Positions 1 to 15,536 of a stretch of DNA of 26,479 bases are shown in pieces; position 1 is the stretch's first letter, and every line of letters starts with the position of its first letter. Origin of the DNA: an uncultured Desulfurococcaceae archaeon (lineage in GTDB: Archaea > Thermoproteota > Thermoprotei_A > Sulfolobales > AG1). The notes under the pieces were generated by a model. That model was not told where the DNA came from. It saw only the letters and a program-made list of their open reading frames with translations, and did no database searches. The stretch covers positions 1 through 26,479 of the forward strand of contig CAZFDB010000001.1 in assembly GCA_964517475.1 (NCBI GenBank), in the 5' to 3' direction. The position numbers were made by a program, and so were the translations under genes.

Positions 1-1673
1 GACATAATCAATATATTCAACTCGAAATGAATCTCCTCAACACCCTTGATAGGTAAAGTAATTAGAACCACGCGAGCAAAATAATTATAGCCAAACATCC
101 AGAACAACCCAATTAATACCGAGCAGATAGCCAGAGTAAGATAAGGAATATACATAACAGGACTAGCCTCATGAGCCTCGTGAACATGATGCTCCTCATC
201 AGATCTCATGAATAAGTAGCCTACAGCTCTTATAGAGTAGAAAGATGTCAAGAAAGCCGTCACAAGTAGTAGAACAGGGATCATTGAATAACCCGCTAGA
301 ACAGAGACATCGATCACGAGATCCTTACTCCAGAAACCTGCTAGAGGAGGCACCGCAGCCAAAGATAAGGCTGCTAAGTAACTAGATAAAATAGTTATTC
401 TCATATAACTCGCTAAACCCTTCATATCATTTATATATCTGCTATGAACAGCATGGATCAGGGCACCAGCACTGAGGAACAATGCTGCTTTAAAAACAGC
501 GTGGCTGAGAAGATGAGAGAACCCGGCAACAATACCGAGTCCAGGCTCACTGATCAAACCAGATAAAGCCGTTGCAACAAACATGTAACCTATCTGCGAA
601 GCCGTGGAGAAAGCCCATATAAGCTTAAGCTCTCTAGCAACCACAGCCATTGTAGCCATCATAAAAGCTGTGAAAGCCCCTATCGAAGCAATAATAAGAA
701 AATACTCTCTGACTTGGAGAAGAGCTATATCACCACTTATAGACGCAACAGATATGAATATAGGCGAGAACCTCAACATAAAGTAGACACCGGCTTTAAC
801 CATAGTCGCAGCATGAATAAGAGCTGAAACACTCGCAGGACCAGTCATCGCCGTAACCAGCCACTCATGCAGAGGAAATTGAGCACTCTTAGCCAGAGCA
901 CCTAAAGTGGTTAGCAATAGAAATATTGTTAAGAAACCACTGGAAGACAAGTCTCTGAAGACCGAGGCCAAAACATTATTCGAGTATAAATCAGGTATAA
1001 AACTTGTTCCAGTAGCAAATATCATGTATCCTAAACCCAGCAAGAGACCAATATCAGCAACACCAGTCATCAAAATAGCTCTCACACCAGAGTGACTAGG
1101 TGAGAAAAACATCGATTCACCAAACACAACCCTCCCTCTATCCCCAACATAGGTGGGTTCATCATCATCTCTATACCAATGACCAATAAGCGCATAAGAA
1201 GCAAGTGAAGTCCCCTCCCAACCAATTATGAATAGAAGAAGATCACCAGTCATGACAAGTAGAAGCATTGAACCTACAAAAAACGTGAAGAAGACCCAGT
1301 ATCTATGCTCACCATAATCATTCTCCATATACTTAAGACTATAGATAGCGATGAGTAGAGATATCCATGCAACCATTAGAGACATTATAGATGATAAACC
1401 ATCTATATAACTCGTGAATCTAAAGATTATTCCACTCTCCCGAGAAAGAGGAATAGTGAACCATACAGAGTCTCTTGAAATAATTATCGTCGAAGGATTA
1501 CTCCAAATAATTACTAGTATAGGTATCGTAAGTATGGCTGAGACAGCTATCGAGAATACTCCTATGAACCCAGATAATCTCTTCTTAAACAACCCTACTA
1601 ATCCAGCTATCGCGGCCCCCACAAAAGGTGTTATCCATACAAGATCAATCCACCAAATAATCTGTGTACTCAT
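1..1673 (-). CDS. nuoL: NADH-quinone oxidoreductase-like subunit L (antiporter-like), 3'-truncated by window edge
   Basis: Not in the ORF track because it has no stop in the window. Hand translation from ATG 1673 (RBS GGTGAGG upstream) gives MSTQIIWWIDLVWITPF..., with the NuoL motif AKSAQFPLHEWLVTAMTGPASVSALIHAATMVKAGVY. The frame appears open to position 3. Confidence 0.92.
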   Translation of the reverse strand, partial: MSTQIIWWIDLVWITPFVGAAIAGLVGLFKKRLSGFIGVFSIAVSAILTIPILVIIWSNPSTIIISRDSVWFTIPLSRESGIIFRFTSYIDGLSSIMSLMVAWISLLIAIYSLKYMENDYGEHRYWVFFTFFVGSMLLLVMTGDLLLFIIGWEGTSLASYALIGHWYRDDDEPTYVGDRGRVVFGESMFFSPSHSGVRAILMTGVADIGLLLGLGYMIFATGTSFIPDLYSNNVLASVFRDLSSSGFLTIFLLLTTLGALAKSAQFPLHEWLVTAMTGPASVSALIHAATMVKAGVYFMLRFSPIFISVASISGDIALLQVREYFLIIASIGAFTAFMMATMAVVARELKLIWAFSTASQIGYMFVATALSGLISEPGLGIVAGFSHLLSHAVFKAALFLSAGALIHAVHSRYINDMKGLASYMRITILSSYLAALSLAAVPPLAGFWSKDLVIDVSVLAGYSMIPVLLLVTAFLTSFYSIRAVGYLFMRSDEEHHVHEAHEASPVMYIPYLTLAICSVLIGLFWMFGYNYFARVVLITLPIKGVEEIHFELNILIM

Positions 1674-1677
1674 ACCC

Positions 1678-3213
1678 TCACCACCCCCTCACGAAACTTA
1701 AAATAATTTTTAGATAAAGTATCTCTGGAGATCCGCTAAAGATATTCAGGACATAACCTATTAATACAAGCATTAGGATAGATATGAGAGAAACTGAGAA
1801 TGTTGATAACGAGATCTGTGGAGGAGACTCTTGTATCACTTCCTCAGATCTTCTTTGACCAAAGAATATTCTCCTCATGGTTACGAAGCTATAAGCAATT
1901 GTTAAACCAAATCCTAAGAAACCTAATATGATGAAAATTATTACTTGAGAAATATTATTGATTCGAGACATTATATATAGAATGAATCCTGATACGATAA
2001 AGAATTTACTCACAACACCCATCGTAGGAGGTAGCCCAGATATCGATAAGAAACCCAGCAACGCTGAACCTGCCGTGAAATTCATTGTGGAGGCTAAACC
2101 ACCCATTCTCCTCATATCTCTTAAACCATGACCACTCACTATTATACTTCCAGCGGACATGAACAACGCCGCTTTACCAAGCGCATGTGTTAGGTAGTGT
2201 AGAACAGCACCTATTAAACCAGCAGGTGTTAATGTAGATACTCCCAGCAACACATATCCCATCTGAGAAATACTACTATATGCCAAGAACCTCTTATAAT
2301 CATTCTGGAACAAAGCGACTAATCCTCCATAGATCATTGTTAACAAAGCCCATAGAATCAGGTAGTATTGGATAGAATAATAGACTTGGGGGAACAGGGT
2401 CACTAATACACGTATCAAACCTAAACCTGCTAAACCAATCAAATTGGGGCTCAGCAGAGCTGATATAGGAGTAGGCGCCTCAGCATGAGCATAGGGAAGC
2501 CATATATGGAATCCTAGAGCAGGTAACTTGATCATGAGACCAATTAATATGAGTAGAAAAACTATGAATTGTATCCCCTGAACACCTAGAAACTTTTCAC
2601 CATAGCCAGTCATGTAGTAAGGCTTTGTCGGTGAGATAAAATCAAAAGTCCCTGTGTTAATCCCGTATATCAAGGATCCTAGTAGGAATAATAGTGCTCC
2701 CATATGAGTCCATATAAAATACATCACACCAATCCTAATTCTCGCGCCGTAGCCGTATAGAGCAATGAGTATAAACGATGTTATTAGAGAGATCTCGAGG
2801 AATACGTAGAATTCTAGTAAATTAGTTGATAAAGCGACACCATTCATTGAGAAAGAGAACAATAGATAATTAACATAGTAAGTTCTCCAAGACCCGTAGC
2901 CTAGCTCCTTAAATCTATGCTCCATGTACGGGTGCGAGTAGAGAGATACTATCGCTGTAACCAATGATACTCCTAGGAGAAATGGTATATTGTATGCGTC
3001 TATGAATAATCCGAAGGTTCCTATAGAGGCTGCCTCGAAAAGAGCTTCGTAGTATGGAACACCGTATCTCACAGGGATCAATACATAGATTAGTAGACTA
3101 TAGATCATGGCTATGAATGATGCTATAGAACCTAGTCTACCTGATATCTTTGGTGAAGAAGCTATTAAGAGGGTAATTAATGCAGGGATCAATATAGTGC
3201 TTAGAAGAATCAT
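1678..3213 (-). CDS. nuoM: Complex I-like subunit M
   Basis: 511-aa hydrophobic protein with FYVFLEISL, IKLPALGFHIWLPYAHAEAP and YSSISQMGY motifs; operon position. Confidence 0.9.
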   Translation of the reverse strand: MILLSTILIPALITLLIASSPKISGRLGSIASFIAMIYSLLIYVLIPVRYGVPYYEALFEAASIGTFGLFIDAYNIPFLLGVSLVTAIVSLYSHPYMEHRFKELGYGSWRTYYVNYLLFSFSMNGVALSTNLLEFYVFLEISLITSFILIALYGYGARIRIGVMYFIWTHMGALLFLLGSLIYGINTGTFDFISPTKPYYMTGYGEKFLGVQGIQFIVFLLILIGLMIKLPALGFHIWLPYAHAEAPTPISALLSPNLIGLAGLGLIRVLVTLFPQVYYSIQYYLILWALLTMIYGGLVALFQNDYKRFLAYSSISQMGYVLLGVSTLTPAGLIGAVLHYLTHALGKAALFMSAGSIIVSGHGLRDMRRMGGLASTMNFTAGSALLGFLSISGLPPTMGVVSKFFIVSGFILYIMSRINNISQVIIFIILGFLGFGLTIAYSFVTMRRIFFGQRRSEEVIQESPPQISLSTFSVSLISILMLVLIGYVLNIFSGSPEILYLKIILSFVRGW

Positions 3214-3566
3214 TACTCCTCACCCTTCAGAGCTAGATCCTTAATAATTCTCTCCTCGGTATCTATCCTCCTCAACACACCATATCTAATTAATGCAATA
3301 AGGATCGAGAATGTGACTACTATCTCGCTAACAGCCAGCAATATAGACACTAAAATAAGAGAAGATACAAAACTAACAGAGTCGCCTATCAACACAGCAC
3401 CGCCTAAGTATTGATAGATATATGAGAAAATCCCTAGTATTATTAGAATAAAAGCATTGAACATCACCTCAGCCGAGATAAGTATCCTAGCAATATTTCT
3501 ACTAGATAATATCCCGTAGATCGATATAGCCAATAATAGAGAAGCTGTTAAGAGCACATAATTCAT
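3213..3566 (-). CDS. nuoK: Complex I-like subunit K (4L)
   Basis: 117 aa, three TM helices, ILISAEVMFNA and AVSEIVV with the conserved glutamates. Confidence 0.88.
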   Translation of the reverse strand: MNYVLLTASLLLAISIYGILSSRNIARILISAEVMFNAFILIILGIFSYIYQYLGGAVLIGDSVSFVSSLILVSILLAVSEIVVTFSILIALIRYGVLRRIDTEERIIKDLALKGEE

Positions 3567-4048
3567 TTTCTCACCATCTTCATAGCGATTAGTAAAGATA
3601 CGAATAAAGACAAAGCACTCACAGAAGCAATCACGAGAATAAGCGTGAAATAGTTAGCAACTAAATAATTAGCAATATAGACATAATCAGGTTTATCAAG
3701 AATAATAACACTATTCTCGGTTCTTAACGAGATATAGATCAGGGGAGAAGCTGATAGCACAGCTACGAGAAGAGCAGGGATCCTGAGACCTCTAACCTCC
3801 CTGGGAAACTCCTCTCTTAGAAGAAGCGTGGTCATGACAATAAAGAGAACACCAGCACCCACATAAACAAGAACATGCACAACGCCTAGAGTAGGCAGAC
3901 CTAGCAAAGCTATTAAGGAAGCAACTAGGAGACCTAGAATAGATAAATACACCGCTGCATACACCAGATTCCTCGCCAACACCGTCATCAATCCACTCAA
4001 TACCGCGAAGAAGCCTATGATCGCAAATAACTCATTGATATAATCCAT
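3563..4048 (-). CDS. nuoJ: Complex I-like subunit J
   Basis: 161-aa membrane protein with RNLVYAAVYL and VHVLVYVGAG motifs; lies between nuoI and nuoK. Confidence 0.88.
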   Translation of the reverse strand: MDYINELFAIIGFFAVLSGLMTVLARNLVYAAVYLSILGLLVASLIALLGLPTLGVVHVLVYVGAGVLFIVMTTLLLREEFPREVRGLRIPALLVAVLSASPLIYISLRTENSVIILDKPDYVYIANYLVANYFTLILVIASVSALSLFVSLLIAMKMVRK

Positions 4049-4052
4049 ATAC

Positions 4053-4616
4053 TCACCCTATAGCCTCGTACCTCAAACCTCTATTCTCATCAATAACAAC
4101 CCTAAACTTTTTCCCAACAATTTTTCTCGGAGGCACATACTCATCGGGTCTCTTCGTAAACTCCTCCAATGTTGTTAACATATCCTCAAATCTATAGAAT
4201 GCCACGTCATGGATCTTGTATGTCTCGAAAGCCTCGACAGGGCAAATATCAACACAGTAGTAGCAGAAGATACATCTCCCCCAATTAATCGTAGGCACCT
4301 TCTTCTTATCTCTCAACACCAGTCTTATAGCATCAGCTGGGCAAACAACATCACATAAGCTACAGCCTATGCACTTATCAGCGTCTACCCGAAACATTCC
4401 TCTGTATCTATCTGGGTACTCAATATCTTTGTAAGGATAATCAATAGTCATTCTCATAGGCTTTGTCAAATATCTGAACCCTGTTGCTAGAGCATCAATA
4501 TTCCTCTGAACAGATCTGCTCGGAGGAGGAGTTTTTACGTTAAGCACCCTCACTTTATCAACTCCTTTATTAATTAACTCCTTTATCCTAGGATCCAGAT
4601 CCTCTCGAGAAGACAT
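4053..4616 (-). CDS. nuoI: Complex I-like subunit I, 2x[4Fe-4S]
   Basis: Two ferredoxin motifs, CIGCSLCDVVCP and CIFCYYCVDICP, preceded by TIDYP...RYRG. Confidence 0.93.
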   Translation of the reverse strand: MSSREDLDPRIKELINKGVDKVRVLNVKTPPPSRSVQRNIDALATGFRYLTKPMRMTIDYPYKDIEYPDRYRGMFRVDADKCIGCSLCDVVCPADAIRLVLRDKKKVPTINWGRCIFCYYCVDICPVEAFETYKIHDVAFYRFEDMLTTLEEFTKRPDEYVPPRKIVGKKFRVVIDENRGLRYEAIG

Positions 4617-4620
4617 ATTC

Positions 4621-5649
4621 TCACCTTAACACATATGATAATGCAAGAGACCAGATCATTGATACGATGGATAAGAAAAAGATCTGGGACCAACCTAATC
4701 TAATAGCTTGATCAACCCTATATCTAGGATAAACAGATCTTAGGAAAACCGAAATTAACATTAAGATAGATGTTTTAATCAAGATAATCAATCCTCCGAT
4801 CAAATATGATGATACAGGATCTCCTGATACAAGCGGAAGCCATCCTCCTAAAAAAACTATTGAGAACAGCATGGAGTAAATATACAATTTAATATACCCT
4901 ATACCCATAGAAACACCATACATCAAACCACTATACTCAGTATATGGACCCATAACAAGCTCCGACTCAGCCTCAGAGATCTCGAACGGGAATCTCCCAG
5001 TAATTCTTATAATAGCGATATAAGCCACCAACGCGGCCGATGGATTAAGTAATATACCCGGTAAATATCTAGCTTGAAAATCTACTGCGCCGCTCATATC
5101 CAGGGATCTGTATAATAGAGCCATTGATAATATTGAGATAATAAAAGGTATCTCGTAAGAAATCATTAGAAAAGCCTCTCTTAATGAGCCTATGAAAGCA
5201 AATTTATTATCTGAAGCATACCCTGTCACTATGATGAAGATAGGCGCTATAGATAATAGAGCTAGAACAACCAGTATATTAGAAGAGATATATATAGGAG
5301 GCTCAACATAAGGTGTAACAGGAATAAATGCTACGGGAATAATAGAGAAGATAAGTGCTAGTGCAGGACCTGTTAAATAAGCAATCCTATCTACATTGCG
5401 TGGAACTATGAATTCTTGAAAAGAATATCTAATGAGATCAGCAACTAATTGAAGAATTCCACCAAATCTCCTAGAGACATGAAGAGGACCGTATCTCAAC
5501 TGGATAAGACCCGCCATTTTTCTCTCCGCCCAGATAATCAATATAACTAATACTAAAACCGCCCCGAATCCTGGTAGAATAAATATGTGGAGAAAATCAT
5601 ATATTAATCTACCAGGTATCTCGAAAGGACCTATGACCACAGCCATCAT
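4621..5649 (-). CDS. nuoH: Complex I-like subunit H
   Basis: ERKMAGLIQLRYGP, RFPFEISEAESEL, TEYSG and PRYRVDQ motifs. Confidence 0.95.
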   Translation of the reverse strand: MMAVVIGPFEIPGRLIYDFLHIFILPGFGAVLVLVILIIWAERKMAGLIQLRYGPLHVSRRFGGILQLVADLIRYSFQEFIVPRNVDRIAYLTGPALALIFSIIPVAFIPVTPYVEPPIYISSNILVVLALLSIAPIFIIVTGYASDNKFAFIGSLREAFLMISYEIPFIISILSMALLYRSLDMSGAVDFQARYLPGILLNPSAALVAYIAIIRITGRFPFEISEAESELVMGPYTEYSGLMYGVSMGIGYIKLYIYSMLFSIVFLGGWLPLVSGDPVSSYLIGGLIILIKTSILMLISVFLRSVYPRYRVDQAIRLGWSQIFFLSIVSMIWSLALSYVLR

Positions 5650-6890
5650 CTATCAGCCTCCGGAGGGAAGTAATCAAGAGATCCGTATATAGCTGGTATA
5701 TCAGCCACTCTATGCCCAGGTATCAGATATTTGAATAAGATCACGTTTCTGAAAGATGGTGTGACGAACCTGAATCTATAGGGGTTCGTAGATCCATCGC
5801 TCACGACATGAAATAAAGCCTCCCCTCTACCAGCCTCAACACGAGCCATAGCCTCACCTTTCGGAGGCTTCAAAGTAGCCATTAAACTTGGTAATTTAAC
5901 TCTTCTCTGCTCAGCATAGATCTTCTTCATCAAAGGATTGAAGAGCCTTGATATCTGTGGAGAAATAATTTCTCCATCAGGAATCTTCTTAATAGCTTGT
6001 CTAATAATATTGATGCTCTGCTCAATCTCCTTAAACCTAATTAATCCCCTAGCATAACTATCTCCCTCCTCAGCAACAGGGATCATGAAATCAATCTCAT
6101 CATAAGCCTCATAAGGCTCAACCATTCTAACATCATAATCTATGCCTGAGGCTCTCACATTAGGTCCCGTCACACCAAGCATTCTCGCAACATTAGGCTT
6201 AAGAATACCTACATCCCTAAGTCTTCTCTCTACAACAGGATTATTCAAAAAGATCCTCTCCCAATCCTTAAGCCTCTTCTCAATATATCTAAGACCTTTT
6301 TCAACAGCATCAGGAAAACTCTGAGGCATATCTCTCCTAACACCACCAGGTATAGCATATGCGTAAGTGATCCTTGCACCCGTAAGCATTGTTGCGAGCT
6401 CTATCATAACCTCTCTATCCCCGAAAGCCCACATAAACCCTGTTGAGTGCCCCAGAAATATCGCGAGGATACCAATACCATAGAAGTGACTAGCAATCCT
6501 CGTAATCTCGGCCAAGATCGTTCTAAGATACTTAGCCCTCGGAGGAACATCTACTCCCATAAGTTTCTCAACAGCATTTACGTAACCAATAGTCATTGGG
6601 GTAGTATCTAGTAAACTAGGTCTCTCAACAAGAGGTATGGTCTTTATATAAGCTCTATTCTCACTAAGTTTCTCAATAGTTCTATGCACAAACCCTATAT
6701 CAGGATCACATCTAACCACAACATCCCCATCCACCCAAGCAAGAATCCTCATATGCCCAGACCCTGGGTGGGTAGGACCTATCTGAAGCTCAATTAATCT
6801 CTCACCCTCCTCCTTAATCCCTGTCTCAACCACTCTGAACATCTCCTCGGATAACTCCTGAGTAATATCCTGAGAACCTGCTACTTCCAC
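5646..6890 (-). CDS. nuoD: Complex I-like subunit D (49 kDa), no NiFe ligands
   Basis: GPTHPGSGH, IGFVHRTIEKL, RVEAGRGE and C-terminal GSLDYFPPEADR; lacks both CxxC motifs of NiFe hydrogenases. GTG start. Confidence 0.93.
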   Translation of the reverse strand: MEVAGSQDITQELSEEMFRVVETGIKEEGERLIELQIGPTHPGSGHMRILAWVDGDVVVRCDPDIGFVHRTIEKLSENRAYIKTIPLVERPSLLDTTPMTIGYVNAVEKLMGVDVPPRAKYLRTILAEITRIASHFYGIGILAIFLGHSTGFMWAFGDREVMIELATMLTGARITYAYAIPGGVRRDMPQSFPDAVEKGLRYIEKRLKDWERIFLNNPVVERRLRDVGILKPNVARMLGVTGPNVRASGIDYDVRMVEPYEAYDEIDFMIPVAEEGDSYARGLIRFKEIEQSINIIRQAIKKIPDGEIISPQISRLFNPLMKKIYAEQRRVKLPSLMATLKPPKGEAMARVEAGRGEALFHVVSDGSTNPYRFRFVTPSFRNVILFKYLIPGHRVADIPAIYGSLDYFPPEADR

Positions 6891-7399
6891 GGAGCCTCAG
6901 CCTCACCTGCTTTACGAGTAACTATTCTAAAATCTTTACGCATAGGCCACTTACCCTCAAACTCCTCTGGAAGAAGAAGTCTCCTAAGATCCGGGTGATT
7001 CTCAAAATAAACACCAAACATCTCCCATGTCTCTCTCTCATGAAACTCTGCACTAGGCCAAACACTTGTTAGAGTAGGAACTCTAGGATTATCTCGATCA
7101 AGAGATGATTTTATCACAATCGTATATTTCCTAACAACTCGTAGATAAGAACCTACGTGAACCATAAGTTCTAATCTTTTCTCCCGCGGATAATCTACTG
7201 CTGAGACAGACTTCACATGATCAAAGCCTAAGTAAAATAGTTTCTTAGCTAGATCCGTGATTCTCTCCTTAGCAACCTCAATATAAATTACCTTCTCAGT
7301 CTTATCCGCATAGATCTTTGATACAAGTTCTTTAAGCTCATCATTCAAAATACTTAAGAGACTATTTAGATCAGGATCCTTTATACCTGGCTGAGACAT
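6881..7399 (-). CDS. nuoC: Complex I-like subunit C (30 kDa)
   Basis: ERETWEMFGVYFENHPDLRRLLLPEEF...PMRKDF signature. Confidence 0.93.
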   Translation of the reverse strand: MSQPGIKDPDLNSLLSILNDELKELVSKIYADKTEKVIYIEVAKERITDLAKKLFYLGFDHVKSVSAVDYPREKRLELMVHVGSYLRVVRKYTIVIKSSLDRDNPRVPTLTSVWPSAEFHERETWEMFGVYFENHPDLRRLLLPEEFEGKWPMRKDFRIVTRKAGEAEAPWK

Positions 7400-7412
7400 C
7401 TAGACAGCCTCT

Positions 7413-7961
7413 TCACACCTGTTTCTTAACATACTTCTTCAAGATCTCTATATCCTCTCTAGATACACCAACACTCCTGATCTTGTCCTGGAGCATCAGA
7501 ATAGCTCTCGCAAGCCCCTCGGGTCTCGGAGGGCAACCAGGTATGTACACATCTACAGGAATAACTTCATTAGCTCTCACAATATTATAGCTGTTCCAGA
7601 ATAACCCACCATCAATAGCACAAGCACCCATAGCAATAACAAATTTTGGATCAGCCATCTGCTCCCATGTTATCCTAGCAACCCTAGCCATCTTAAGAGT
7701 TAGAGTACCTTCTACAATAATAAGATTCGTCTGCCTAGGAGAGACAAAAGGTAAAGAACCATATCTCTCAAGATCATATCTAGGTGAGTAAGCACCAGCT
7801 AACTCAACACCACAGCAACTAGTCATTAGATGAACAGGCCATAACGAATATGAGATAGCCCACTCCATAATATCTCTGACAGGCCTCTTCTCCAACAAGG
7901 ATCTTATTAATTTTTTCACGAACACATCTATTTCTCCAATAAAAACTACGCCTCTCTCCAT
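7413..7961 (-). CDS. nuoB: Complex I-like subunit B (N2 cluster)
   Basis: SCCGVE, MGACAIDGG and IPGCPPRP motifs. Confidence 0.94.
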   Translation of the reverse strand: MERGVVFIGEIDVFVKKLIRSLLEKRPVRDIMEWAISYSLWPVHLMTSCCGVELAGAYSPRYDLERYGSLPFVSPRQTNLIIVEGTLTLKMARVARITWEQMADPKFVIAMGACAIDGGLFWNSYNIVRANEVIPVDVYIPGCPPRPEGLARAILMLQDKIRSVGVSREDIEILKKYVKKQV

Positions 7962-8320
7962 AGATCCAGAACCTCCGCGTATTTATAGACTATATATAAA
8001 ATAGGGAGAATAATTATGAGACTCACAACCAATACGTAGGAGACTAGGTTAAGGAGATCATAAGGAGACAAAAGAATAAATATGAGGAGAACCACTAATG
8101 GCTCTAATGAGGAGAACATTAAGAGAAAAGGATAATACTGCATTATGAAGAATCCCCTAGATCTCCCAGATCTAGGATTCCCACTCTCGAATCTCTCTCT
8201 CTTCATCACATACTCTACATCAGGTGAAACAGCGATTGAGATATAGTAGGCAGCCACAGGAATGAGTAACGATACAATCACGAGTAAAATAATCATGGCA
8301 ATAGCGTATATATCAACCAA
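7946..8320 (-). CDS. nuoA: Complex I-like subunit A
   Basis: 124 aa, three TM helices, RFESGNP loop and QYYPFLLMF. TTG start with GGTG 7 nt upstream. Confidence 0.88.
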   Translation of the reverse strand: MVDIYAIAMIILLVIVSLLIPVAAYYISIAVSPDVEYVMKRERFESGNPRSGRSRGFFIMQYYPFLLMFSSLEPLVVLLIFILLSPYDLLNLVSYVLVVSLIIILPILYIVYKYAEVLDLWREA

Positions 8321-12890: not shown

Positions 12891-12952
12891 AAGTGTTAAG
12901 GTGAGATGATCAGGCATCTACAAAATTCTCCTCCTCGGGACTTATAGAGTTA

Positions 12953-12988
12953 TTTTTATAAGCTACCTAAACCCGAATAAAATGGTGA
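12953..12988 (+). promoter_or_regulatory. Putative TATA box and RBS of the acidic microprotein gene
   Basis: TTTTTATA at 12953-12960 and GGTGA at 12984-12988, 4 nt before ATG 12993. Confidence 0.5.
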
Positions 12989-12992
12989 ATAT

Positions 12993-13151
12993 ATGGTACC
13001 GAAACCTCTGAGATTTGAAGAAGAGGAAGAGGAGTGGGAAGAAGAGGAAGAAGAAGAGGAGGAATGGGAAGAAGAAGATCTAGAGTGGGAAGAAGAGGAG
13101 TGGGAAGAAGAGGAAGAAGAGTGGGAAGAGGAAGAGGAGGAGGAAGAGTAG
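12993..13151 (+). CDS. 52-aa Glu/Trp-repeat acidic microprotein, function unknown
   Basis: Hand translation: MVPKPLRF-E6-W-E9-W-EEEDLE-W-E4-W-E6-W-E8-stop. It has its own TATA, RBS and downstream T-tract. GAA/GAG codons alternate and TGG stays in frame. Below the ORF track size cut-off. Confidence 0.8.
   Translation: MVPKPLRFEEEEEEWEEEEEEEEEWEEEDLEWEEEEWEEEEEEWEEEEEEEE
13017..13148 (+). repeat. Low-complexity GAR/TGG homopurine tract
   Basis: 132 nt with only 8 pyrimidines on the + strand (five TGG codons plus GAT CTA). Confidence 0.9.
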
Positions 13152-13159
13152 CCCAGCTA

Positions 13160-13178
13160 TAAAAACATCTAGTTTTTA
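13160..13178. terminator. Putative bidirectional terminator
   Basis: TAAAAAC-ATCTA-GTTTTTA inverted repeat giving a T5 tract on each strand, between convergent stops at 13151 and 13186. Confidence 0.55.
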
Positions 13179-13185
13179 CAAGAGA

Positions 13186-13947
13186 TCAGGGAATAATAAT
13201 TAAATCAAGATCTTTTACGAGAAAAGATCTCTCAAATAATTTTCTGGCTTCTAAGATTATTTTCTCCTCATCTCGATATCTAGAGCTTATATGATATAGA
13301 TATAATCTTTCAGCCTCTGATTTTAAAGCTATTTCAACAGCCTCTGAAACAGTGCTGTGTCCCGAGATCACAGCCTCTTCTAGATCCTCTGAAGAAAATG
13401 TGGCGTCATGAATCAATATATTTGCTTTTTTACAGTGATTCACAACTTCATCGCATGGTCTCGTGTCTCCTGTGTAGCATATTTTGTAGCAATCTCCTCT
13501 ATGACTAATCTCTATCACGTATCCAAAACTCTCAATTGAGTGACATACTCTGAATCCTTTTATACGGATCTTGTTGAAAACATGTGTTTCCTCAGGATCT
13601 CTATACTCTAATTCAAAAGATAATTTATGTCGCGACACATTTAGGAAAATATTTATCAGATCTCTTATTTCTCGGGGGGCTATTACGTAGAGAGTATCTC
13701 TTCTATTAAAGAGGGTCATTGATTGTAGAAGAGGTAGTAATCCTATGAAATGATCACCGTGGAGATGTGTTATAGCAATAAATCTTATTTTGAGTGGTGA
13801 TAAACCTATTTGTTGAAGTCTTATCTGACAACCCTCGCCACAGTCTAGTAATCCTATCTCTTTATTGATCTCAATCGCTATTGAGGGATGCCAGCGACGA
13901 TTATTTGGAGAAGCTGCTCCACTACCTAGAAAATAGATCTTGATCAT
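13186..13947 (-). CDS. rnz: Ribonuclease Z (tRNA 3' endonuclease, MBL fold)
   Basis: FLGSGAA, DCGEGCQ, THLHGDHFIG, YTGDTRP, LIHDATF, GHST and YHISSRY. Confidence 0.93.
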   Translation of the reverse strand: MIKIYFLGSGAASPNNRRWHPSIAIEINKEIGLLDCGEGCQIRLQQIGLSPLKIRFIAITHLHGDHFIGLLPLLQSMTLFNRRDTLYVIAPREIRDLINIFLNVSRHKLSFELEYRDPEETHVFNKIRIKGFRVCHSIESFGYVIEISHRGDCYKICYTGDTRPCDEVVNHCKKANILIHDATFSSEDLEEAVISGHSTVSEAVEIALKSEAERLYLYHISSRYRDEEKIILEARKLFERSFLVKDLDLIIIP

Positions 13948-14865: not shown

Positions 14866-14922
14866 TAAAATGATGATACACGCAGGAGCTGATTATGATG
14901 AAGCCCCGCATCACTGATGATT
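14866..14922 (+). ncRNA. Box C/D 2'-O-methylation guide sRNA
   Basis: C box ATGATGA 14870-76, 12-nt guide TACACGCAGGAG, D' box CTGA 14889-92, TT spacer, C' box ATGATGA 14895-901, 12-nt guide AGCCCCGCATCA, D box CTGA 14914-17. All four boxes are consensus with canonical archaeal spacing. Ends are approximate. Confidence 0.92.
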
Positions 14923-15536
14923 ATAAAAAGACTTTGGCCGAGACCCTCAGAAAAAAGATCTCTGAGCTGGATAAAAGAGATTTGATTAGGGAGAATGTTA
15001 TTAGGATCTCTAGAGACTTGATTAGATGCTCTGGTAAAGTAGTATCAAGTATATTAGCAAATAACATAGATGAAGCTAAAAGAGAAATGGGTAGTTGCAG
15101 TGACTTGTTAGAGGATCTCGCGAAACACTACTATGAGGCCCCAGATCTAGTGAGAGGGATCGCTACACAAGCATTCACAGAATACTGTGAAGCTCTACTA
15201 CTCCTTAAAATATTCTCGGGAGATACTGAGGAGTGCGGTGATAAGATCCCTCCGGAGAGTGTGGTGCTTGGAGTACTAGATCTCACAGGAGAATTAAGGA
15301 GAGTAGCTATAAAACTACTAGGTGAATGGGATCTTGATACGGTGAAAGAGATAATAGATCTTATAAAAAACATATATCTAATCCTAAGCCCACAAGATTA
15401 TTCAGATGCCATAGCACCTGGGTATAGGCATAAAATAGATGTTTTGAGAAGAAATATTGAGGATCTAGAGACACTATATAGCGATATTAAAACTAGGAGA
15501 GATCTTATAGAGTCGCTGAGGAAAATCACTCTATGA
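14895..15536 (+). CDS. Translin/TRAX (C3PO)-family RNA-binding endoribonuclease
   Basis: All-helical protein with QAFTEYCEA and GVLDLTGELRR motifs. Start is uncertain (ATG 14895/14898 inside the C' box, or TTG 14934). Confidence 0.85.
   Translation: MMKPRITDDYKKTLAETLRKKISELDKRDLIRENVIRISRDLIRCSGKVVSSILANNIDEAKREMGSCSDLLEDLAKHYYEAPDLVRGIATQAFTEYCEALLLLKIFSGDTEECGDKIPPESVVLGVLDLTGELRRVAIKLLGEWDLDTVKEIIDLIKNIYLILSPQDYSDAIAPGYRHKIDVLRRNIEDLETLYSDIKTRRDLIESLRKITL

Follow-up and report, generated by a model that had tools for sequence, protein, structure and literature searches.

Several described systems resemble in part the glutamate-rich micro-ORF that we analyzed. DSS1 is found in proteasome-lid and BRCA2 complexes, and the DSS1/Sem1 proteins (PF05160) are small and disordered; they are very acidic, and their few Trp residues anchor on the basic surfaces of partners. 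In repair, DSS1 is an acidic partner that has been proposed to imitate nucleic acid (PMC6954417). The C-terminal tail of the aP1/aP0 stalk is a flexible acidic stretch with hydrophobic anchors, which binds NBD1 of ABCE1 as well as translational GTPases (PMC6125642). Through a C-terminal Trp, Lto1 brings Rli1/ABCE1 into contact with the machinery that inserts Fe-S clusters, and this Fe-S targeting signal requires a free C-terminal Trp or Phe that is preceded by an acidic residue (PMC4523923). Finally, MgtL-type leader peptides, which destabilize the ribosome, are short ORFs that are rich in acidic residues near the start (for the phenomenon, PMC9718836).

The micro-ORF lies in the window, which is the whole 26,479-nucleotide stretch of archaeal DNA analyzed here. 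Its product combines traits of these systems without qualifying for them. It may work like the DSS1/Sem1-type acidic adaptors, by analogy. DSS1/Sem1 is eukaryotic, however, whereas the window peptide is archaeal and far more extreme in composition (71% Glu), and membership was rejected because Pfam gave no PF05160 match (E ≤ 0.1). Like the stalk tail, the microprotein is acidic and hydrophobically anchored, and ABCE1 is the usual neighbor of its family; a stalk-tail homolog was nevertheless rejected, as the microprotein has neither a GLxALFG-type motif nor a ribosome-anchoring domain. In the genome's own aP1/aP0 tails, Lys and Glu are mixed and the final residues read EGLAALFG or EGLSALFG. The Lto1 analogy is attractive for the canonical members of the family, most of which end in an acidic residue plus Trp beside ABCE1, but is inapplicable to the window variant, which has only an internal Leu-Glu-Trp; a Lto1-type signal was rejected here because the peptide continues for eight residues beyond its last Trp, Trp44. 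To our knowledge, no counterpart of the eukaryotic cytosolic Fe-S assembly targeting complex has been described in archaea. A LysW/ArgW carrier was also rejected: without Cys the peptide cannot have the CxxC...CxxC zinc ribbon, it lacks the C-terminal EDWGE, and its gene lies between nfeD and an RNase Z-like gene, with no lysX/J/K nearby.

The locus

The ORF runs from an ATG at 12993 to a TAG at 13149-13151 (52 codons), and no alternative in-frame start codon lies between the preceding stop and this ATG. The features of the locus are the following:

12950-12963, + strand: archaeal promoter with TATA box, core TTTTTATAA at 12953-12961, about 36-40 nt 5' of the ATG
12984-12988, + strand: Shine-Dalgarno sequence GGTGA (-9), 4 nt 5' of the microprotein ATG
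12993-13151, + strand: very probable coding sequence, with its stop codon, of the 52-aa Glu/Trp microprotein (ten distinct in-frame orthologs and codon-position statistics)
12993-13016, + strand: codons of the genus-specific octapeptide MVPKPLRF (6/6 genus genomes; synonymous variation)
13065-13088, + strand: most conserved core, Trp25-x4-Leu30-Glu-Trp32 (WGEEELEW in relatives), with W25, L30, E31 and W32 invariant
13125-13148, + strand: C-terminal poly-Glu tail beyond the last Trp, 8 Glu here and 10-12 in the nine other distinct orthologs
13161-13177, no strand assigned: A5-N7-T5 between the convergent genes, from its sequence a likely oligo-T terminator for both (T5-T6 in relatives)
13186-13947, convergent to the micro-ORF: gene for an RNase Z-like metallo-beta-lactamase protein, its stop 34 nt from that of the micro-ORF

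The encoded peptide contains 37 Glu, five Trp (residues 15, 25, 32, 37 and 44) and no Cys, with a net charge of about -36. A previous sequence-only reading had correctly given its length, its Glu and Trp counts and the MVPKPLRF start, but its Glu runs of 4-9 need revision: after the octapeptide, the runs measure 6, 9, 3, 1, 4, 6 and 8, with Trp15, Trp25, Asp29-Leu30, Trp32, Trp37 and Trp44 as the spacers between them. Glu codons are mixed (GAA 21 times, GAG 16 times), and Trp is encoded by five TGG codons. The 1.23-Mb assembly (72% complete) contains no other hyper-acidic ORF, no companion Lys/Arg-rich micro-ORF and no other protein that carries the octapeptide motif.

On the 5' side, the micro-ORF is preceded on the same strand by stomatin and NfeD1b genes, with an Hjc gene farther upstream. 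On the 3' side, the convergent RNase Z-like gene and a DTD2 deacylase gene are followed by a translin-like gene, purB, purA and gatA/gatB. The translin-like gene (14895-15536, + strand) encodes a 213-aa protein with a match to the Translin family (Pfam PF01997, E 1.2e-9), and forms a small tRNA- or RNA-related cluster with the adjoining DTD2 deacylase and RNase Z-like genes.

Conservation within the genus

We searched for the N-terminal motif by pattern and found it in all six genomes of the window's genus, an uncultured genus of hot springs, and in none of the 319 other genomes of the order; four MAGs titled Sulfolobales or Desulfurococcales archaeon and seven metagenome contigs carry it as well. 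Five assembled genus genomes, including that of the window, hold a complete copy, and the sixth copy is interrupted by a gap. The order stomatin, nfeD, micro-ORF, convergent RNase Z-like gene, DTD2 is kept throughout the genus. While the flanking proteins share 54-92% identity, the octapeptide and the W-x4-LEW core remain invariant or almost so: M1, P3, P5, L6, R7, F8, W25, L30, E31, W32 and W44 are identical in all ten orthologs, and the poly-Glu tail and the position of the stop are conserved along with W44.

The lengths of the Glu runs, and even the number of Trp residues, vary among strains with identical flanks. Specifically, in one species-level group with such flanks (L031, L091, L094, L095 and L096), the microprotein measures 58, 58, 59, 60 and 67 aa, with a Pro-Trp-Glu5-Trp-polyGlu module duplicated internally in the longest variant. 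These runs of Glu behave like a hypervariable triplet repeat. This repeat also breaks assemblies. A run of N lies inside the gene in one genus genome (L033/L087, G004 contig 74), and Logan contigs from two metagenome runs terminate exactly at window position 13014; genes of this kind will often be absent from MAGs. Public sequencing runs that match the locus comprise two hot-spring DNA runs and one marginal one; none of those listed is an RNA run.

Evidence for protein coding

The ten distinct orthologous coding sequences span 52-67 codons, and the frame is kept in all of them. Because a period-three repeat slips in threes, frame retention by itself is weak evidence. Two further observations are independent of this caveat. 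First, among the 427 purine-only codons of the ten orthologs, position 1 is G in all 427 and position 2 is A in 419 (98%), while position 3 is A in 251 and G in 176. Had the purine tract been selected as RNA or DNA, each of the three positions would vary, so this codon-position bias indicates coding. Second, the octapeptide codons show eight additional synonymous codon types across the orthologs, against two conservative replacements (V2A and K4R). In addition, stop codons occur in the two other sense frames of nearly all copies, and the antisense Leu/Phe frame is interrupted by a stop in the window. A structured RNA at the locus was rejected, as Rfam gave no match and the transcript folded no better than its shuffles (z = +0.2). 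The micro-ORF is therefore, with high confidence from sequence comparison, a real protein-coding gene. The sequence-only reading had argued for selection at the protein level; the fixed first and second positions, the free third position, the almost purely synonymous octapeptide and the homologs found in frame in all genus genomes bear it out.

Expression signals

The promoter block TTTATAAGCT is present in every genus ortholog at an equal distance from the ATG, and the TATA box of the window's stomatin gene is similar. The sister genus g2 has a similar TATA, TTATATAAGC, at -38 of its own micro-ORF. The Shine-Dalgarno sequence is kept as GGTG in all microprotein orthologs, and the identical GGTGA motif recurs with the same spacing upstream of operon-internal nuo genes of the window. 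These genes belong to a complex I-like nuo operon at 3-8320 on the minus strand, in which GGTGA sites precede the internal genes; it encodes homologs of chain 3, of the 20 kDa, 30 kDa and 49 kDa chains, of NADHdh, of a Fer4 subunit, of chains 6 and 4L, and of two antiporter-like subunits.

All ten orthologs end in a stop codon that adjoins a T tract, which in relatives is a T5-T6 directly 3' of the stop. In the window, the T5 at 13173-13177 would serve the micro-ORF and the complement of the A5 at 13161-13165 the RNase Z-like gene, both as putative terminators. Since this A5-N7-T5 can terminate both convergent genes, the microprotein unit is monocistronic. The TATA box, GGTGA site and T-tract terminator that had been read from the single sequence thus recur at conserved positions in the orthologs and match the signals of real genes in the window.

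A wider Glu/Trp family linked to ABCE1

That the family had not been recognized agrees with our searches: no curated Pfam family covers the microprotein at E ≤ 0.1, and an exact look-up among 15 billion proteins did not find it. The ESM Atlas does contain the exact sequence, and the look-alikes there are weak (best score 0.84) and without structure. We found no paper on such peptides in the literature searched, which is not proof of absence.

To find relatives, we used a core pattern of three Glu, Leu-Glu-Trp and four Glu, with one mismatch allowed. This yielded further tiny Glu/Trp ORFs, including a 51-aa ORF starting with MITF in the sister genus g3, with one such micro-ORF per genome, and, in another family, ORFs of 27-28 aa in three genera. 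Each of the six genomes of the sister genus g2 has one Glu/Trp ORF of 30-51 aa, which starts with MKRF, has Trp, Phe and Leu spacers, ends in 10-11 Glu and a Trp, and is preceded by the TATA at -38. A second pattern, for this terminal Trp (four Glu, Trp, then a stop or second Trp; no mismatch), matched 194 of 325 genomes of the order (74/97 genera) and, in a phylum-wide sample, 124 of 301; when reversed as a control, it matched only about 20 and 15 genomes, respectively. The unreversed pattern matched all six genomes of g2 and none of the six of the window's genus, so that the form of the window's genus and the canonical form are complementary in distribution. Some families nearly lack the pattern (f8 with 9/67, f19 with 0/50 and f30 with 0/19 genomes); the gene may be absent there, or present as a variant that the pattern misses, as in the window's genus.

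We observed that ABCE1 (Fer4_RLI plus ABC_tran) is the recurrent neighbor of these micro-ORFs. Within the order, it lies within 1.5 kb in 13 of the 19 loci displayed, either co-directional or divergent, and cgi121 often flanks the micro-ORF on the opposite side; Nop5 or unrelated enzymes are other neighbors of the relatives. Outside the class, 12 loci were fetched and 10 displayed a micro-ORF, which in all 10 ends in Trp and has ABCE1 downstream; in eight of these, the two genes are co-directional and about 50-150 nt apart (e.g. locus L125, with the micro-ORF at 1423-1518 and ABCE1 from about 1572). On the basis of these positions, a micro-ORF just upstream of ABCE1 looks like the ancestral arrangement. 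Several of the ABCE1-linked micro-ORFs in other classes also carry WGEEE cores, which resemble the WGEEELEW of the window's genus. A nearby lyase gene was considered as a sign of synteny between g1 and g2 and rejected, the two lyases being paralogs of 28% identity.

A word-indexed protein search returned 1560 candidates, none of which was scored by HMMER because its composition correction removes low-complexity candidates, and the family relationship thus has no E-value. Homology is instead argued from composition and promoter layout, from the single copy in each genome and its complementary distribution, and from the short WGEEE-type core. Judged by these sequence features, the window's ORF is likely to be its genus's version of the ABCE1-linked family. 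The varying neighbors in sister genera and the recurrence of ABCE1 likewise point to a derived member of a wide family, not an orphan.

How the window's version differs

Shared with the family are a tiny ORF of 20-60 codons that is mostly Glu, spaced Trp/Phe/Leu residues, a TATA box and Shine-Dalgarno sequence of its own, a single copy per genome, and an N-terminal cap, short and either hydrophobic or aromatic, ahead of the first Glu run. The differences concern both ends of the peptide and its position. At the N-terminus, the window's genus has MVPKPLRF where the sister genera have MKRF or MITF, i.e. an eight-residue extension with two Pro and two basic residues. At the C-terminus, all ten orthologs have 8-12 Glu beyond the last Trp, and the terminal Trp typical of the family has therefore been lost; the poly-Glu tail stands in its place. 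The gene adjoins neither ABCE1 nor cgi121. ABCE1 is missing from the window's 72%-complete assembly, and elsewhere in the genus it lies 18-21 kb from the micro-ORF, preceded by an eS26 gene and a 60-nt spacer with its own TATA (locus L052:2746-3100); no acidic ORF is found in this stretch, where other lineages carry one. The linkage is lost throughout the window's GTDB family. As all ten orthologs keep the derived state, it is a stable derived form and not decay.

Physical nature of the peptide

AlphaFold2, run on the genus alignment, predicted a single helix over residues 6-51 (pLDDT 91), which is a generic outcome for any poly-Glu. The phase of the hydrophobic residues along the helix is not conserved (resultant 0.03-0.44, all p > 0.17), and an amphipathic helix or coiled coil was rejected for this reason. 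From this and from the Glu-run lengths that vary between strains, we picture the peptide as a flexible polyanion with spaced aromatic anchors and not as a folded domain.

Proposed function and alternatives

We propose that the microprotein is encoded by a stand-alone, translated gene, a relocated and remodeled member of the Glu/Trp family, and that it acts in trans as a polyanion on a basic, nucleic-acid-binding surface, most likely in translation or ribosome recycling. We give this proposal as a whole about an even chance of being correct. According to it, the ancestral gene would have stood directly upstream of ABCE1 and encoded a peptide ending in Trp; in the genus, it would have moved into the gap between nfeD and the convergent RNase Z-like gene, gaining the MVPKPLRF extension and the poly-Glu tail beyond the last Trp. 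The Glu runs could imitate a phosphate backbone or the acidic ribosomal-stalk tail, with the spaced Trp, Leu and Phe residues serving as anchors, so that many weak electrostatic contacts plus these anchors would give multivalent binding to a basic surface that normally binds nucleic acid, in particular RNA. The bound surface would belong to the translation or ribosome-recycling machinery. The partner is placed there because ABCE1 is the family's conserved neighborhood, and on this neighborhood evidence we assign it to translation only tentatively, with somewhat less than even confidence. Sequence comparison supports the reality of the gene, its conservation and its family relationship, whereas translation in vivo, partner and effect are inferred. 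In addition, efficient synthesis of the full microprotein is not assured, since bacterial and eukaryotic translation is aborted by long N-terminal Glu runs (PMC9718836).

Two alternatives have some standing, and we consider each of them unlikely to a similar degree. In the first, the polyanion would be a DNA mimic or chaperone, as the sequence-only reading had already suggested, and would sequester Alba, Cren7 or Sul7-type proteins or inhibit the nearby nucleases, Hjc or the RNase Z-like enzyme. Its composition is that expected of DNA mimics and DSS1-like proteins, even though no Pfam DSS1 match was obtained, and both nuclease genes are nearby. The link to these neighboring nucleases is not supported, however, since the nfeD/RNase Z neighborhood is conserved within a single genus, and the relatives in sister genera and beyond adjoin cgi121, ABCE1, Nop5 or unrelated enzymes, with ABCE1 recurring across the order and the phylum. 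Moreover, the RNase Z-like gene is convergent and hence not co-transcribed with the micro-ORF. The general idea of that reading, a polyanionic binder or mimic anchored by Trp, is still what we consider the most plausible guess.

In the second, the act of translation would itself be the function: the poly-Glu ORF would destabilize or stall ribosomes and thereby sense the status of ribosomes, Mg2+ or charged tRNA, as acidic leader peptides do, and the window's gene would be the relic of an ABCE1 leader. The abortion of translation at N-terminal D/E runs in bacteria and eukaryotes (PMC9718836) is in line with this, as is the usual co-directional position 50-150 nt upstream of ABCE1 across the phylum. 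Against it, the micro-ORF is divergent from ABCE1 in several families, ABCE1 lies 18-21 kb away in the window's genus, and what follows the micro-ORF is a T tract and a convergent gene and not a gene that it could regulate in cis. Selection also extends to W44, the poly-Glu tail and the stop, whereas a sensor needs the first codons only. A leader peptide of the MgtL type was rejected on these grounds: no regulated gene downstream on the transcript, a terminator of its own, and selection over the whole peptide.

Much less probable is a cation, polyamine or metal buffer, i.e. a cheap, highly expressed polyglutamate that binds Mg2+, Ca2+, Fe or polyamines in an archaeon of hot springs. With 37 carboxylates per 52 residues, and a consensus-like promoter and Shine-Dalgarno sequence that suggest high expression, the peptide might suit such a role, but small molecules are much better buffers than a single peptide of 52 aa, and the conserved Trp and Leu positions, the octapeptide and the ABCE1 link would be left unexplained. 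Least probable of all is that the ORF is incidental to a polypurine (GAR)n repeat acting as a non-coding RNA or DNA structural element, for although the low-complexity purine tract breaks assemblies and shows tandem periodicities of 15, 21 and 36 nt, its codon positions 1 and 2 are fixed with position 3 free, its octapeptide evolves synonymously, its start, Shine-Dalgarno sequence and stop are conserved, and neither the folding z-score nor Rfam points to an RNA.

For the proposed peptide acting in trans, the absence of a downstream gene, the terminator of its own and the conservation to the last codon are arguments, and the purifying selection that persists despite separation from ABCE1 and loss of the terminal Trp favors it over an ABCE1 leader. 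If the peptide is made, few of the protein-coding genes that archaeal annotations still omit would be as widespread as this one: the family occurs in the majority of the order's genomes and in many phylum-wide, usually touching the gene of ABCE1, an essential recycling factor. The window's version would then mark which features are dispensable (position, terminal Trp and Glu-run lengths) and which are retained (aromatic anchors, the W-x4-LEW core and the extreme charge). The locus also illustrates that genes of this type escape gene callers and HMM filters and defeat assemblers. We further speculate, as a bolder idea that we hold to be rather improbable, that the Glu/Trp microprotein is an unrecognized, phylum-wide trans factor of translation or recycling that works with ABCE1 or with stalk-docking factors. 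The genus would then be a natural unlinking experiment, in which cis-linkage and a free C-terminal Trp prove inessential and MVPKPLRF takes over as a docking peptide; the octapeptide, which the sequence-only reading had put forward as a basic docking motif, is conserved but specific to the genus.

The pattern search also surfaced, solely through a tail that ends in four Glu, an ORF ending at about 1744 on the plus strand of contig C91 (genome G000). It encodes a 110-aa zinc-ribbon protein, very basic at its N-terminus and with an acidic tail of Glu and Gly; we take this protein to resemble an Elf1-type elongation factor.
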